Origin: a phage | Sequence record: PZ357121.2 | Length of the DNA stretch: 64,000 nt | Direction: 5' to 3' (one strand) | Part shown: in pieces, positions 29,401 to 34,238 of the stretch | Position numbering within the stretch: position 1 is the stretch's first letter | How the letters are laid out: each line of letters begins with the position of its first letter | Notes under the pieces: model-generated | What the model saw: the letters and a program-made list of their open reading frames with translations, nothing else | Database searches by the model: none | What the model was told of the DNA's origin: nothing | Made by a program: the position numbers and the translations under genes

Positions 29401-29854
29401 ATAGGAGGGTAGTGAGCACCTTATATAATGATTTGCCCATTACATATTCCCATTGAGAAGGTTTAATTAAAGCGAATGCATCAAATTCAGGAATCTGTCG
29501 TCCGTCTGGGAACGTATGATAGGAATTACAAACACTGTTTCTGAATTGCTCGTGCTCTACAGGGATGGTATATAAGAACAGATGAATATTCTTATTGTCT
29601 GAGTAACGATGTTCACCTAGGTCTTTCAGGAAGGCAGGGTCATATTGTGTAAACCCAGTTTCTTCTTCGCATTCACGAATAGCGGCTTCGATAGGAGATT
29701 CACCGGGCTCGACACGGCCTTTAGGAATATCCCACCGATGAGCTAAAGAACCTTTAGGACGAGAACCAGTTACACGGCCCATGAATAACTCTTTATCTTT
29801 TGTCATGAAGATAATACCAGCTGATAGCTCTTTCACTTTATTTTTCTTACTCAT
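29399..29854 (-). CDS. nudE: Nudix hydrolase NudE
   Basis: 151 aa from ATG at 29854; Nudix box GRVEPGESPIEAAIRECEEETG. Confidence 0.8.
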   Translation of the reverse strand: MSKKNKVKELSAGIIFMTKDKELFMGRVTGSRPKGSLAHRWDIPKGRVEPGESPIEAAIRECEEETGFTQYDPAFLKDLGEHRYSDNKNIHLFLYTIPVEHEQFRNSVCNSYHTFPDGRQIPEFDAFALIKPSQWEYVMGKSLYKVLTTLL

Positions 29855-30333
29855 CATCTCAAATTCCTGCATTCGGTAATAAAATGTTCAACTTCATTAT
29901 TCTTGGCCTTTATCTTGTCTTTATGATCTTGTAAACTACTTTTAATAAGATTAATAATGATGGCGGCGGTACCGCCGCCAATGATGCCACCAACAACACT
30001 TATGATACTAGATGCTAATAAGATAGCAATAATATCAACAAAACCGAAAGAACTCACCTTAGTACTGAAAAACCATATAGACGGTACAAATATAATCCAT
30101 CCTGTTATCCATTGGCACTTATTGAAAAACCTTTCAAGCTCAGCTTGAGTTGTTCGTATTACTTCATCGATAGGTTGATATCCATTAATGTATCTGTTCA
30201 CGATAATACCTGCTGGCTGGTCGATTTTAAATTCTTGACAAATATGTTTCACTAAGTAGGATGGACAGGATGTCCAATCTACTGAATAGTATGAAATACC
30301 TTCATTGCCATCGTCTATATTATTGTTAATCAT
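29854..30333 (-). CDS. hypothetical membrane protein with C-terminal HFITECR motif
   Basis: 159 aa; TM segments; C-terminal motif shared with 31021, 33475, 34177 ORFs. Confidence 0.5.
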   Translation of the reverse strand: MINNNIDDGNEGISYYSVDWTSCPSYLVKHICQEFKIDQPAGIIVNRYINGYQPIDEVIRTTQAELERFFNKCQWITGWIIFVPSIWFFSTKVSSFGFVDIIAILLASSIISVVGGIIGGGTAAIIINLIKSSLQDHKDKIKAKNNEVEHFITECRNLR

Positions 30334-31019
30334 TACCAGCCTTCCATAGGGAATTCCAGATAAACTTGAGCATTGACACGAATTTCATTGGTAATCTTTT
30401 TAACTCGGTCTGTATTACGAGATACACGTCCGAACCAACGCCATCCATTACTAATTGCACGAGAACCAGTGTGCCATGTTTGCCAATCAAACTGAAGAAG
30501 AGTACGATCTGGAGCTTCCCATTTCTCTAGTTCACCTTTTTCGATTTTTTCGAGGACTTCTTTGTGCCACTGGCGATAGATAAGTTCGCCATCAGGAATC
30601 TGACCGAACTCTGCAGTTCCTGTTGCAAAATGAGTAGGACACACATCAGCGTTAACAAGACCAAGAATATGTTCAGAATGGTAACGAGGGTTGTCATAAT
30701 CAGGTTGTCCTGCAGTAATAAAGTGTTGACCGGCTGGAATATCAGGGCGTGGTACGTCATCATGGTGATATCCAGGAATAGCAGGATACCAACCAGGCAT
30801 CAACATGTGAACTCGTGAATCAAATACTACATCCGAGTCTTTCCAATCGCCAGGAAGATTTTGGATAAAGCTACGAGTAATTGGACCGCCATTATCAAAA
30901 GCAAAATTCAAATCGCAGTTAAAGAACATAGGCTCGTTTTTAATCTGGTCGTTTTTAATCGCGTGAGCAAAACCACCTACTGCACGAGCTTGGCTATTAA
31001 ACACTTTAGAACTATTCAT
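30333..31019 (-). CDS. hypothetical protein with His-rich HxD...H motifs (possible metal-dependent enzyme)
   Basis: 228 aa; GYHHDDVPR...AGQHF. Confidence 0.45.
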   Translation of the reverse strand: MNSSKVFNSQARAVGGFAHAIKNDQIKNEPMFFNCDLNFAFDNGGPITRSFIQNLPGDWKDSDVVFDSRVHMLMPGWYPAIPGYHHDDVPRPDIPAGQHFITAGQPDYDNPRYHSEHILGLVNADVCPTHFATGTAEFGQIPDGELIYRQWHKEVLEKIEKGELEKWEAPDRTLLQFDWQTWHTGSRAISNGWRWFGRVSRNTDRVKKITNEIRVNAQVYLEFPMEGW

Positions 31020-31020
31020 A

Positions 31021-31326
31021 TTATTTTCCTCGACATTCTTTAATGAAATTTTCTAGATTGGTAGATTCAATAGCTTTTTTACGAGCTTCTGCGTGTTCTT
31101 CTTCAGACAATTTACATTTATAATTGACCCAGACATTATGGTCGAAACTAGTCGTGGCATATAATAACAATGCTCCAACGAATAGCAAAAACGGCGATAA
31201 GAATACAAAACCAGGAACACCATCCATATCGTAAGCCTTTTGTAATACTGCAACAGAAAGAGCTGCGTAAAAAGGTGATGCAAATATTGTTAAAAGACCA
31301 ATTCGGTTGGTTTCGCCTAATTTCAT
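31021..31326 (-). CDS. hypothetical membrane protein with C-terminal NFIKECR motif
   Basis: 101 aa; GAGGAG before ATG. Confidence 0.5.
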   Translation of the reverse strand: MKLGETNRIGLLTIFASPFYAALSVAVLQKAYDMDGVPGFVFLSPFLLFVGALLLYATTSFDHNVWVNYKCKLSEEEHAEARKKAIESTNLENFIKECRGK

Positions 31327-31345
31327 AATATTCTCCTCATGTTTT

Positions 31346-31384
31346 AATAGGACTACTATAACATAGTCCTATCATGTTGTAAAC
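31346..31384 (-). promoter_or_regulatory. hairpin-embedded early promoter, family A copy
   Basis: plus strand aataggactactataacatagtcctatcatgttgtaaac. Confidence 0.6.
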
Positions 31385-31396
31385 AGTTTTGCGAAA

Positions 31397-32353
31397 CTAT
31401 TTGAAAGGTTTTACCATATGGAAATTTTGTTTGAAACGTTTGACGTAATCATCATGTCCTAAGCTTTGATACATACTTACTACTTTGCTGTAGTTTTCCC
31501 AGGCATACTCACGGAACCAGCCGGAGGTTATGCTTGTGCAGACTTTTTCTAATGCTATCATAAAACTGGCTTCAGGGTTAATTTTAAAGTCATTAGGAAT
31601 CTGAGAACGTTCTAATGCTAGTACACATGATTCTTCGTATACGCCGGCCAATTTGACCATTTCTGGCAATGATTCAAACTTCTCGCGTGAGGTCATGACT
31701 TCAGAACCGTCTTTCATATAAAATGTATACGCTGGACGGTCTGTTAGTGCAATGGCTTCATGAATAGTATCATGGTCGTATGTATAGATGTCATCTTTAA
31801 AGAACGCACTTTTAGAAGTGTCAAGAACTGGGTGAGCATAGTTCAAGGTTTCTTTCTGGCGTTTCAGCATAATTTCAGTAAGTTCATCGTTCAGTGTAAC
31901 ACCTTTACCACGAAGATACTGAATATGGTTCATAGTCTTTAAAAAGAACGGATTATTTTTCTTGAAACGATGAGACATCTTAATTGCAAGACATATCTCA
32001 GGAGTTGCCCAGTAAAACCCATTCAAACGGTCTTTAGACAAATGTTTCTTGGCGTATTTTAAAAGGTCATAAGAAGACGTGAAATCTTCAGGAGTGAGTT
32101 CACCGACTAATTCACGGACATTAGTGATTGCCGGAACAATATACGCTTCAAAATGAGTTTCGCGTCCGTTATGGAAGCATTTGAAAACTTGGACATCAGG
32201 GTTATCTTGATGAACATATACACCCATCATTTGATTTTTGAATGTATTCCAAGAACCTTGGTCTGCAATAAAGTCCCAGTCACTATTTTTGATAGCGTTA
32301 GAATCAATAAGACCATGATAGTGAAGTGCACGAGAACCAATAACTAACATCAT
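31397..32353 (-). CDS. hypothetical 318-aa protein (N-terminal IGSRALHYHGL...SDWDF, weak NTase-like signature)
   Basis: ORF track. Confidence 0.45.
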   Translation of the reverse strand: MMLVIGSRALHYHGLIDSNAIKNSDWDFIADQGSWNTFKNQMMGVYVHQDNPDVQVFKCFHNGRETHFEAYIVPAITNVRELVGELTPEDFTSSYDLLKYAKKHLSKDRLNGFYWATPEICLAIKMSHRFKKNNPFFLKTMNHIQYLRGKGVTLNDELTEIMLKRQKETLNYAHPVLDTSKSAFFKDDIYTYDHDTIHEAIALTDRPAYTFYMKDGSEVMTSREKFESLPEMVKLAGVYEESCVLALERSQIPNDFKINPEASFMIALEKVCTSITSGWFREYAWENYSKVVSMYQSLGHDDYVKRFKQNFHMVKPFK

Positions 32354-32381
32354 AATATTTTCCTCGGATTAATTCATTAAC

Positions 32382-32621
32382 TTAAATTTCACGACATGCG
32401 ATATCATATTCATCCCAGAGGTCATCGTGTGAAGCCTCTACCAATGGAACGATTGTACCATTTATGTCTTCATTATAAGGGCAAATTGTACAGTGCGCAT
32501 CTTCGAATCGAATGCCTTTGTGTTCAGATTTTTTATAACGCATATCGAATATCTTTGCAAACTTTTCACGAGTAATGGTTTTAGCAACCACTTCGGTTCC
32601 AACACTTTCGTAATAAATCAT
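32382..32621 (-). CDS. hypothetical protein
   Basis: ORF track 79 aa; GGAG before ATG. Confidence 0.5.
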   Translation of the reverse strand: MIYYESVGTEVVAKTITREKFAKIFDMRYKKSEHKGIRFEDAHCTICPYNEDINGTIVPLVEASHDDLWDEYDIACREI

Positions 32622-32640
32622 TGTGGACTCCGTTTAATTT

Positions 32641-32679
32641 GATAGGACTACTATAACATAGCCCTATCTTGTTGTAAAC
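32641..32679 (-). promoter_or_regulatory. hairpin-embedded early promoter, family A copy (one arm mismatch)
   Basis: plus strand gataggactactataacatagccctatcttgttgtaaac. Confidence 0.55.
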
Positions 32680-32683
32680 TGTT

Positions 32684-32881
32684 TTAGCAAGAATAACTAG
32701 ATGATACCCAGCCTTGAACAGTAATACTATTATTTGATACCGAGATCGCGTTCTGGAGATTCAGGCCTGCGTTATCTTCAATCCACAATGTAACTTCTTC
32801 GCGTTCTTCTGTTGCAATTTGGAACAGGTTTTCTAGGGCAGCTACTGCCGTACGTACAGCACAATCTAATTCACGAGACAT
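32684..32881 (-). CDS. hypothetical small protein ending GWVSSSYSC (paralog family)
   Basis: ORF track 65 aa. Confidence 0.45.
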   Translation of the reverse strand: MSRELDCAVRTAVAALENLFQIATEEREEVTLWIEDNAGLNLQNAISVSNNSITVQGWVSSSYSC

Positions 32882-32890
32882 ATGGTTTCC

Positions 32891-33163
32891 TTAACAAGTG
32901 TGAGAAGATGCGATCCAACCACCAGTTTCGAGGCTCAGGTTGTAGTCGTATTGGTAAACATCAGCCCATTCAGCATAGCCGTTTTTTGTACAACGTTCAA
33001 GATCGGCTTTAAGTTGTCCGGGTGAATGATAGGTTCCACCCATACCATAAGCTGGACACAAGTCGAATGTTGTGTTTTGTTTATCAGCAATTTCTTTGGC
33101 AGCCTCAATAGCTGCATAGATTTTTGCTACGGCTTCAGCCAGTTCGGTTTGTTCTTTAGACAT
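32891..33163 (-). CDS. hypothetical small protein ending GGWIASSHTC (paralog family)
   Basis: ORF track 90 aa. Confidence 0.5.
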   Translation of the reverse strand: MSKEQTELAEAVAKIYAAIEAAKEIADKQNTTFDLCPAYGMGGTYHSPGQLKADLERCTKNGYAEWADVYQYDYNLSLETGGWIASSHTC

Positions 33164-33172
33164 AATGATTCC

Positions 33173-33478
33173 TTAGCACAACGCAGAAGACGAAACCCAA
33201 GCACCTTCAGTAATAACGTAACCATTACCTTCACGCTTAACATCGCCACCATTATTTTCAATTTCATCTTTCATCCACTGGGATACGATTTCACCCTTAG
33301 GATAATAAGTACGACCGCTACCATAATCACCTACAGAAAATGATACGGCGTATTGGTCTGCGATCTTTGTTGCTTCTTCTTCGATACGTTCAGCTTGATT
33401 CAGAAGTTTATAAATTGCATCTGAAGCGGATTTGGCATCATTAAACTCTGGTACTTTAATTTCAATAATCTTACTCAT
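33173..33478 (-). CDS. hypothetical small protein ending GAWVSSSALC (paralog family)
   Basis: ORF track 101 aa. Confidence 0.5.
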   Translation of the reverse strand: MSKIIEIKVPEFNDAKSASDAIYKLLNQAERIEEEATKIADQYAVSFSVGDYGSGRTYYPKGEIVSQWMKDEIENNGGDVKREGNGYVITEGAWVSSSALC

Positions 33479-33834
33479 TTTCTACATTCCTTAATAAAGT
33501 TTTCTATTGTTTCATTTTCACGTCTAGCTAGGAGTTCATTATAACTAATCATTTGAGAAGCGTAAACCTTTTTATTTTTCTTGTTATGGTTTATAAAATC
33601 GTAGTAAAAATAGACTACAGTACAAAATGATGCGATGGATGCAAAGGCTTGGGTATACCGTAAGTCCTGCCATTGGTCTGTGAATCCACCAGTGTTCCCT
33701 ATAAATCCTAACACAACGCCGTCAATAAGAAATCCAACTAATCCAAAGGCAAATCCCATGCCAATACTCATAATAAAAATTAGAATGTTCTCACCAAGAG
33801 AAGGCCATACGGTTAAGAGTTGAGGCTTTTGCAT
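33475..33834 (-). CDS. hypothetical membrane protein with C-terminal NFIKECRK motif
   Basis: ORF track 119 aa. Confidence 0.5.
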   Translation of the reverse strand: MQKPQLLTVWPSLGENILIFIMSIGMGFAFGLVGFLIDGVVLGFIGNTGGFTDQWQDLRYTQAFASIASFCTVVYFYYDFINHNKKNKKVYASQMISYNELLARRENETIENFIKECRK

Positions 33835-34238
33835 CTTATTTCCTTAACGAATTCCATAGCTTCTTCATATTCATACTTTTTAACAGCTTCGTCATACTGA
33901 GCTTGGGCTTTTGCGCACTGAACTTTCCATTCTCTTAATCGGGCTCTGTGATGACGTCCTTGGTGCCAATATCCTGCCCAATTAATAGGCATTAATAAAA
34001 ATGGTACAATAAACGACCCGGCTATAATAAGTAAAAACACTGCATCAGACGATATAACTTCACTAGAATCTAAAATAGCTCCTATAATCATAAAGATTAA
34101 AAATGCTAAAGCTAAAATAGGGCCAAATAGTACTTCATTTGGGATTAATTTACGCTTGTATTCATACGCCCAGGGCTTACTTGGCATGTATAGGGTTGGC
34201 TTTGACATATTCTCTACATTCCATAATAAATTGCTCAA
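33813..34238 (-). CDS. hypothetical membrane protein (start uncertain)
   Basis: ORF track 141 aa; two TM segments; possible start at internal Met near 34190. Confidence 0.45.
   Translation of the reverse strand: MSNLLWNVENMSKPTLYMPSKPWAYEYKRKLIPNEVLFGPILALAFLIFMIIGAILDSSEVISSDAVFLLIIAGSFIVPFLLMPINWAGYWHQGRHHRARLREWKVQCAKAQAQYDEAVKKYEYEEAMEFVKEIRCKSLNS

Follow-up and report, generated by a model that had tools for sequence, protein, structure and literature searches.

The 64,000-nucleotide stretch of phage DNA analysed here (sequence record PZ357121.2, in the following called the window) carries three adjacent small genes whose products end in the same serine-rich tail with a terminal cysteine. 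Our analysis suggests that these genes most likely belong to a module with two components, in which a single gene for a putative enzyme composed of the domains DUF7277 and DUF7275 is directly preceded by one to six tandem small genes in the same orientation. We tentatively propose that this enzyme has the small proteins as its dedicated partners, probably as its substrates, and that the Ser-Ser-x-x-Cys tail would serve as an arm for reaction or docking. In the tests made here, the module did not match any known system, and it is described by no database or paper that we found. The window is derived from a Mosigvirus, i.e. an RB69-like T-even phage: over positions 32300 to 33900, it shares 97.7% identity with RB69 and as much as 99.2% with other isolates. 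The genes of the module in the window are the following (aa, amino acids; ORF, open reading frame):

33478..33173, minus strand: paralogue A, ORF of 101 aa; N-terminal helix and YGSGRTYYPKG hairpin, ends in EGAWVSSSALC
33163..32891, minus strand: paralogue B, ORF of 90 aa; YGMGGTYHSPG hairpin, ends in TGGWIASSHTC
32881..32684, minus strand: paralogue C, ORF of 65 aa; helix, strand with the Trp residue and tail, ends in VQGWVSSSYSC
32353..31397, minus strand: linked putative enzyme, 318 aa; N-terminal DUF7277 and C-terminal DUF7275, corresponds to RB69ORF134c

The family of Cys-tailed small proteins

Judged by their sequences, the three small ORFs are anciently diverged tandem paralogues, and their relationship is weak but real. 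In pairwise BLASTP comparisons the proteins matched each other with E values of 2e-4, 2e-3 and 3e-4, and the identity between the paralogues is 28-33%. Since the alignments reach 16 to 54 residues back from the C-terminus, the likeness is not limited to the last few residues. The two longer proteins share the hairpin segment (YGSGRTYYPKG in the 101-aa and YGMGGTYHSPG in the 90-aa protein), which is absent from the 65-aa protein: Paralogue C is a minimal version without the YGxGG hairpin. A hidden Markov model (HMM) of the family picked exactly these three among the 1230 six-frame ORFs of the window (E = 3e-23 for B, 2e-22 for A and 4e-5 for C). Moreover, a six-frame translation of the whole window contains three matches to the pattern W[VILM][SA]SS..C, all of them at these C-termini, with about 1e-4 matches expected from the composition. 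An earlier note on this DNA, made from the letters alone, had located three tandem Cys-tailed ORFs between positions 32684 and 33478 and had taken them for paralogues; the ORFs are indeed there, on the minus strand, and both the BLASTP values and the family HMM bear out the paralogy.

In other Mosigvirus genomes, the orthologues differ mainly by synonymous changes, with ratios of nonsynonymous to synonymous differences (pN/pS) of about 0 to 0.13, and we can conclude that these are real genes under constraint. The description of the three genes in the earlier note as a diversifying family is thus misleading: The paralogues are divergent, and anciently so, but each orthologue is under purifying selection. 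For paralogue A, 127 phage records show an identity of at least 99%, and paralogue C is conserved in 252 records. In PHROGs, A and B belong to phrog_899 (HMM E values of 1.3e-22 and 1.1e-17, respectively) and C to phrog_4882 (E = 1.6e-36). These two groups, which PHROGs keeps separate, are by sequence paralogues with the same tail.

When 1.84 billion cluster representatives were searched with a nine-sequence profile, 214 clusters (defined at 50% identity) scored at E ≤ 1e-3. With few exceptions their members are 65-143 aa long, and the match extended to the last residue. We based the motif statistics on 151 retrieved sequences that are shorter than 150 aa and end in Cys; a minor group of members ends in Cys plus one residue. 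Counted from the C-terminus, Trp at position -8 is present in 149, Ser at -5 in 150 and Ser at -4 in 149 of the 151 sequences. Position -6 is occupied by Ser, Ala or Pro, and Gly predominates at -10 and -9, resulting in the C-terminal consensus G-x-W-h-[S/A]-S-S-x-x-Cys-COOH. The [YF]GxGxxY hairpin is found in 132 of the 151 members (consensus AYGMGGTYYPKG). The invariant columns of the family are limited to Y, G, G, W, S, S and C, with no conserved Arg or His, and 77 members contain a single Cys. The median isoelectric point (pI) of the 151 proteins is 4.5. The tail, which the earlier note had pointed out as conserved, is the key conserved element: it is near-invariant in more than 150 distant relatives, with the Cys almost always being the last residue, and no other part of the small proteins reaches the degree of conservation seen in the enzyme. 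The N-terminal extensions of longer members are coiled-coil or low-complexity regions, and no informative fused domain was found. Outside of phages the family is hardly seen: a scan of one genome per species for 185,579 bacterial and archaeal species yielded five loci, all on contigs of metagenome-assembled genomes. Thus, the module is essentially phage-restricted.

An AlphaFold2 (AF2) model of paralogue A computed with a small alignment reached a mean confidence score (pLDDT) of 89. In this model, a small sheet is packed against a long helix at the N-terminus, the last beta-strand is formed by the W-V-S residues, and SSxxC makes up the terminal turn; the family members are thus predicted to be small acidic alpha/beta proteins. 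No similar fold was detected among solved structures, and the matches among predicted viral structures were uncharacterised members of the family only. The small proteins match no Pfam or NCBIfam family; phrog_899 and phrog_4882 are the only database families matched, and no function is recorded there. PADLOC-DB gave one insignificant match to the family (E = 0.01, 12.5 bits). PHROGs and Pfam record neither a link between the small families and the DUF7275 protein nor a description of the motif, and no relevant paper was found in the literature for the names of the ORFs, their accessions, the DUF and PHROG identifiers or keywords.

A few unusual proteins were encountered along with the family. 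The metagenomic protein P0166 (134 aa) contains two tandem copies in one frame (...GWAASSQSC-W-EMN...VWDHSGCAF), so that the first tail is internal; this is either a natural fusion by loss of a stop codon or an assembly error. In four loci, the motif is present twice in the second small gene (L013, 6250-6474, and L014, 6264-6476, both from Aeromonas phages; L044, 5700-5951; L083, 5357-5674): An internal DW(L/N)SSSC precedes a terminal W-x-x-S-(S/N)-C by about 25 residues, and this looks like an internal duplication of the tail. Finally, T4 Tk.1 (62 aa; gene tk.1, NC_000866, 350-550) matches the family HMM weakly, with E = 0.0044 within a small search. The match runs through the hairpin-like segment ...FEISSEYGDAETYY... 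and the protein has no W..SS..C tail; Tk.1 may be a remote tail-less relative or a chance match.

Linkage to a DUF7277-DUF7275 gene

The most informative feature of the region is the downstream gene for the putative enzyme, which the earlier note left out, as it did the strand. We examined the linkage in both directions. Starting from distant members of the small family and inspecting their neighbours, we found a DUF7277/DUF7275 gene one to three genes downstream on the same strand in all seven unrelated phage lineages: three metagenomic contigs of 84, 122 and 371 kb, the Otagovirus phiPsa267 of Pseudomonas, the Escherichia phage phAPEC8 and two Aeromonas phages. On the three contigs the partner is a DUF7275 or a DUF7277-DUF7275 protein, and in phiPsa267, phAPEC8 and the two Aeromonas phages, further small paralogues are located nearby. 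In the reverse direction, 80 IMG/VR loci were fetched by alignment of the enzyme alone (38-97% identity to the enzyme of the window) and searched for small-family members with the HMM (E ≤ 0.01). At least one member was present in 69 of the 80 loci. All 137 gene copies are on the strand of the enzyme gene, and 136 of them are upstream of it. Two copies were most frequent (29 loci), followed by one (23 loci) and three (15 loci); five and six copies were found in one locus each, and none in 11 loci. Six of these 11 loci have divergent ORFs ending in W-x-S-S-(x)-C directly upstream of the enzyme gene, and a seventh (L042) is doubtful. When all ORFs of the 80 loci were clustered against each other, the small family was present in 64 loci by BLAST, whereas the next real family reached at most 31. 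The small family alone travels with the enzyme gene across these loci.

The same picture emerges from tblastn searches: the numbers of phage records with the small protein and with the enzyme were 253 and 260 for phages of Escherichia, 59 and 59 for Aeromonas, 34 and 35 for Klebsiella, 34 and 36 for Enterobacter, and 18 and 18 for Shigella. Phages of Acinetobacter and Stenotrophomonas, which were missed by BLAST, have three tandem HMM-detectable copies beside the enzyme gene; in the Stenotrophomonas phage, these are downstream of it. The Streptomyces phage Wakanda, the Gordonia phage Toniann and the Vibrio phage KVP40 possess homologues that consist of the C-terminal domain only, and these have no small-family neighbour. 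Taken together, the linkage spans Straboviridae, Otagovirus, Phapecoctavirus, Menderavirus and jumbo phages while the other neighbours change. Since the synteny outlasts a complete turnover of all other neighbours, it is a strong indication that the small proteins and the enzyme are functionally coupled.

The 318-aa protein matches DUF7277 (PF23942) and DUF7275 (PF23940) with E values of 1e-78 and 3e-27, respectively (263.7 and 95.5 bits at a cut-off of 27), and both domains are also above threshold in the homologues of four other phages. In PHROGs, the protein corresponds to phrog_2141. We analysed residue conservation in 92 unique homologues, 88 of which are full-length. In the N-terminal domain, G6-S7, D25-x-D27 and E69 are conserved in all 88 full-length proteins, with E69 replaced by Asp in six of them. 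This GS...DxD...E arrangement follows the hG[GS] / DxD / hEh pattern of Pol-beta-type nucleotidyltransferases, and some GenBank records name the homologues "putative nucleotidyltransferase". The invariant or near-invariant residues of the C-terminal domain are K125, H128, K139, H194-D195, H198, E240-E241 and E248-R249, and of these H128, H194-D195, H198, E240, E241 and E248 are present in 92 of 92 homologues. The His, Asp and Glu residues look like the kind of cluster that binds metals in HD-type hydrolases. In addition, C272, which is part of the segment KVCTSxTSGW, is conserved in 89 homologues; in those of Wakanda, Toniann and KVP40, which also lack the N-terminal domain, it is replaced by Val or Ile. 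Two known nucleotidyltransferases were considered and discarded: none of eight homologues matched RlaP (PF10127) at E ≤ 10, and the sugar nucleotidyltransferase for arabinosyl-hydroxymethylcytosine in RB69 is gp52:53, the product of a gene unrelated to this module.

Possible roles of the small proteins

The earlier note had suggested that the tail is a modification signal. Given the close and nearly universal linkage of the small genes to a conserved gene for a putative enzyme, this is now a reasonable hypothesis. In the mechanism that we tentatively favour, the Trp residue would anchor the last beta-strand in the fold, and the exposed Ser-Ser-x-x-Cys-COOH arm would enter the active site of the enzyme, where the Ser hydroxyl and/or the terminal Cys would be modified. 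From the N-terminal signature of the enzyme, O-nucleotidylylation is the simplest guess for such a modification, and it could be reversed, removed or processed by the hydrolase-like second domain. With their divergent acidic bodies, the paralogues might each have a target or role of their own early in infection. Divergent bodies combined with one invariant arm and a single enzyme gene suggest several substrates or carriers with a common recognition or acceptor element.

Several points weigh against this proposal. The interaction of the two components, the function of the tail as an acceptor arm, the chemistry of the enzyme and the host target are what we infer from the synteny and the conserved residues, and the tight synteny could also mean that the small proteins regulate or inhibit the enzyme rather than being its substrates. 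The assignment of nucleotidyltransferase and hydrolase domains rests on the motif pattern and on third-party annotation because sequence comparisons gave no hint of the fold: Sequence-profile searches of the PDB with enzyme alignments of 8 and 23 sequences returned nothing, hhalign comparison with E. coli Cca and with the N-terminal half of GlnD gave a probability of 0.1% (a weak test with single-sequence targets), and no Pfam nucleotidyltransferase or HD model matched the enzyme at E ≤ 10. A single-sequence AF2 model of the enzyme had a pLDDT of 37.5, too low for the model to be of use. Moreover, the spacing between Ser-Ser and Cys varies in divergent members of the small family (SSC, SSxC or SSxxC), which argues against one rigid geometry. 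About four to five of the 80 loci as well as the full-length homologue of DSS3_PM1 have no recognisable small partner, and the 80 loci are not phylogenetically independent, with many of them coming from Straboviridae.

The same synteny would be expected if the small proteins were regulators or inhibitors of the enzyme, either antitoxin-like or as specificity subunits, with the terminal thiol and carboxylate plugging or chelating a metal centre until a trigger arrives. By chemical inference, a C-terminal Cys could act as a bidentate ligand via its thiol and carboxylate, and the invariant His/Asp/Glu cluster of the enzyme suits metal binding. However, up to six divergent paralogues per enzyme under purifying selection exceed what an inhibitor would require, chelation offers no obvious role for the invariant Ser-Ser, and no toxicity is known for the enzyme, so that we regard this explanation as unlikely. 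It also seems rather unlikely that the small proteins act alone on host targets, as acidic decoys or anti-defence inhibitors, and share with the DUF7275 gene just an accessory island or early expression. They are small, acidic and probably early proteins from a non-essential region that T4 lacks at the syntenic site, traits that are typical of host-takeover and anti-defence genes, and their neighbourhoods often contain genes for NAD salvage, Sir2, RNA repair and Gad2-like proteins. Yet, co-location in an island leaves the strict upstream adjacency on the same strand across phage families unexplained, and we found no PADLOC match or other link to a defence system.

The conserved cysteines of the two partners invite a further explanation, which we consider improbable: the tail might be a swinging-arm thiol that exchanges a group with C272 of the enzyme in a relay of the redox, persulfide or thioester type. 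A short exposed segment does carry the near-invariant terminal Cys, and C272 is lost only in homologues without a small partner; but this loss is confounded with phylogenetic distance and with the loss of the N-terminal domain. Moreover, the small proteins do not resemble any sulfur carrier or redoxin in fold or sequence, and the equally invariant Trp and Ser-Ser would remain unexplained. The lipidation-like and metal-binding signals that the earlier note had in mind, taken as lipidation or a membrane anchor and as intrinsic metal binding, are hardly credible, as the presence of the terminal Cys is the one feature that speaks for them. This Cys is at position -1 and does not form a CaaX box, and there is no N-terminal signal peptide or lipobox: the N-termini consist of MSK or MSR and then an acidic helix, and a hydrophobic signal is missing. 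The proteins look soluble and are acidic (pI 4.1-4.7), and no prenyl- or acyltransferase is co-conserved in the 80 loci. As for metal binding, the terminal Cys is the only conserved candidate ligand, with neither a His nor a second Cys being conserved, and half of the members contain just one Cys.

Among these explanations, we prefer the partner and probable substrate role of the small proteins. A special form of it, which we judge highly improbable, is that the enzyme represents a novel type of protein modifier and builds a C-terminal cross-link or warhead on folded carriers: Nucleotidylylation of a Ser and elimination would give dehydroalanine, and addition of the Cys, or its decarboxylation, would result in a ring like those of lanthionine or aminovinylcysteine (AviCys), with the paralogue bodies directing the warhead to different host targets. 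If so, an unrelated enzyme in lytic phages of Gram-negative bacteria would perform a chemistry in the style of ribosomally synthesized and post-translationally modified peptides (RiPPs).

If the linkage reflects a functional relationship, the genes described here form a two-component system that is widespread in phages and restricted to them, with T-even-like, rV5-like, Otago-like, Mendera-like and jumbo phages among its carriers. Its study could bring to light a post-translational chemistry of protein C-termini, or a way of manipulating the host, that is new. A role would then be provided for two Pfam domains of unknown function and three PHROGs that are present in many phages considered for therapy (Mosigvirus, Dhakavirus, Karamvirus and Phapecoctavirus). 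The absence of the module at the syntenic position of T4 may partly explain why it has not been studied.

Genomic context and comparison with known systems

The arrangement of the three small genes in the window is compact. The start codon of paralogue A overlaps the stop codon of e.3 (ATGA), the start of B is preceded by TAAGGAATCATT-ATG and that of C by TAAGGAAACCAT-ATG. The A/B and B/C junctions are near-identical, TG(C/T) TAA GGA A(T/A)C (ATT/CAT) ATG, and at both of them the Shine-Dalgarno sequence sits over the stop codon of the preceding gene, which fits with tandem duplication and co-translation. In RB69, the small genes are located between e.3 and ORF135c/ORF134c: A corresponds to ORF139c plus ORF138c, B to RB69ORF137c and C to RB69ORF136c. 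In the RB69 record (NC_004928, 6877-7183, corresponding to window positions 33173-33478), a 1-bp indel splits paralogue A into ORF139c (71 aa) and ORF138c (33 aa), and the tail reads AWVSSPALC as compared to AWVSSSALC in the window. Since the gene is intact in more than 120 Mosigvirus records other than RB69, the split is either a pseudogene of the laboratory strain or a sequencing error. In T4, e.2 directly adjoins e.3, and the whole block is thus an insertion relative to T4. This insertion between e.2 and e.3 in RB69-like phages is about 3.5 kb long (window positions ~29840-33480, by offset from the RB69 coordinates) and contains ORF132c, ORF133c, the enzyme gene, ORF135c and the three small genes. 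The further features of this region are:

32382..32621, minus strand: intervening 79-aa ORF, corresponds to RB69ORF135c, phrog_3723; not a member of the family, lineage-specific
33538..33566, minus strand: promoter-like site TTTACG-17-TATAAT inside e.3, upstream of the small genes; 10 of 12 positions match, consensus match only
within 32641..32678, minus strand: promoter-like site TTTACA-17-TATAGT with upstream TG; 10 of 12 positions match, consensus match only
within 32641..32678, minus strand: hairpin with an 11-bp stem, dG -19.8 kcal/mol, z = -3.0; overlaps the TTTACA-17-TATAGT site

The intervening ORF separates the small genes from the enzyme gene and is not co-conserved across the 80 loci. 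The scan for promoters used a consensus of the sigma-70/T4-early type, and the overall number of matches in the region was no higher than in shuffled sequences. The second promoter-like site and the hairpin occupy the 62-nucleotide gap after paralogue C (32622-32683); this element in front of ORF135c and the enzyme gene might function in RNA processing, as an attenuator or as an internal early promoter. The three small genes are probably early genes.

The NAD-salvage genes for NAPRTase/NamPRT as well as genes for Sir2 and DprA-like proteins are recurrent in ten neighbourhoods of the module from unrelated phages, which also contain RNA ligase 1 or 2, polynucleotide kinase (PNK), a Gad2-domain protein and DUF932. 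None of the neighbours of this kind is conserved across lineages, and the region behaves as an accessory or counter-defence neighbourhood. The label "sulfurtransferase", which appears under the match in some records, belongs to the e.4 homologue outside the module. In the window, this homologue (33813-34238) is a predicted membrane protein; it is called a sulfurtransferase in Escherichia phage vB_Eco_F27 (L002, 3014-3409), and the product name is also found under the match in Shigella phage JK36. We found nothing to support this name for e.4.

Which known systems does the module resemble? In RiPP clusters, tandem small precursor genes are likewise located directly upstream of one gene for a maturase. 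Gly-Gly or Gly-Ala often precedes the Trp of the small family, and the arrangement of S(-5), S(-4) and C(-1)-COOH resembles that in lanthionine formation, where a dehydrated Ser combines with a Cys, and the i,i+3 arrangement of AviCys formation, in which EpiD/LanD act on a C-terminal Cys. In contrast to RiPP clusters, no LanB/M/KC/L dehydratase, LanD flavoprotein, protease or exporter was found in the window between e.3 and ORF134c, among the genes of three metagenomic contexts with their precomputed Pfam labels or by co-conservation in the 80 loci. Moreover, the small proteins are 65-140 aa long and predicted to be folded, with the Trp strand being part of the fold in the model, the Ser-Cys spacing varies in divergent members, and the carriers are lytic phages of Gram-negative bacteria.

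A reactive Cys at or near the C-terminus is a handle for partner enzymes in the DsrC/TusE sulfur relay and in the pearlin carrier peptides (TglA-Cys), and PAPS reductase and the large subunit of ribonucleotide reductase have cysteines on C-terminal arms. The small family differs from DsrC/TusE and TglA-Cys by the lack of any sequence or fold similarity and by its partners, and tests of the family revealed neither a beta-grasp fold with a C-terminal Gly-Gly, as in ThiS/MoaD, nor the DsrC fold.

RlaP (PF10127) is an RNA-ligase-associated Pol-beta nucleotidyltransferase of large phages (PMC7824862; PMC12776372). Both RlaP and the enzyme of the module are phage-borne putative Pol-beta nucleotidyltransferases, and the DUF7275 gene is sometimes found near Rnl1/PNK or Rnl2. 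However, these RNA-repair neighbours of the DUF7275 gene are not conserved, and RlaP has not been described together with Cys-tailed small proteins.

Finally, the proposed pairing of a small protein with an enzyme has a counterpart in PII-GlnD, in which nucleotidyltransferase and HD domains provide for reversible uridylylation, and in HepT-MntA, a type VII toxin-antitoxin system based on AMPylation. The likeness would extend to a Pol-beta-like GS...DxD...E signature followed by a helical domain with His and Asp residues of the metal-binding type, and hydroxyl groups would be the likely acceptors. The small proteins of the phage module have neither the PII fold nor the Rx4-6H motif of HEPN proteins, and their acceptor would be the extreme C-terminus rather than a loop.

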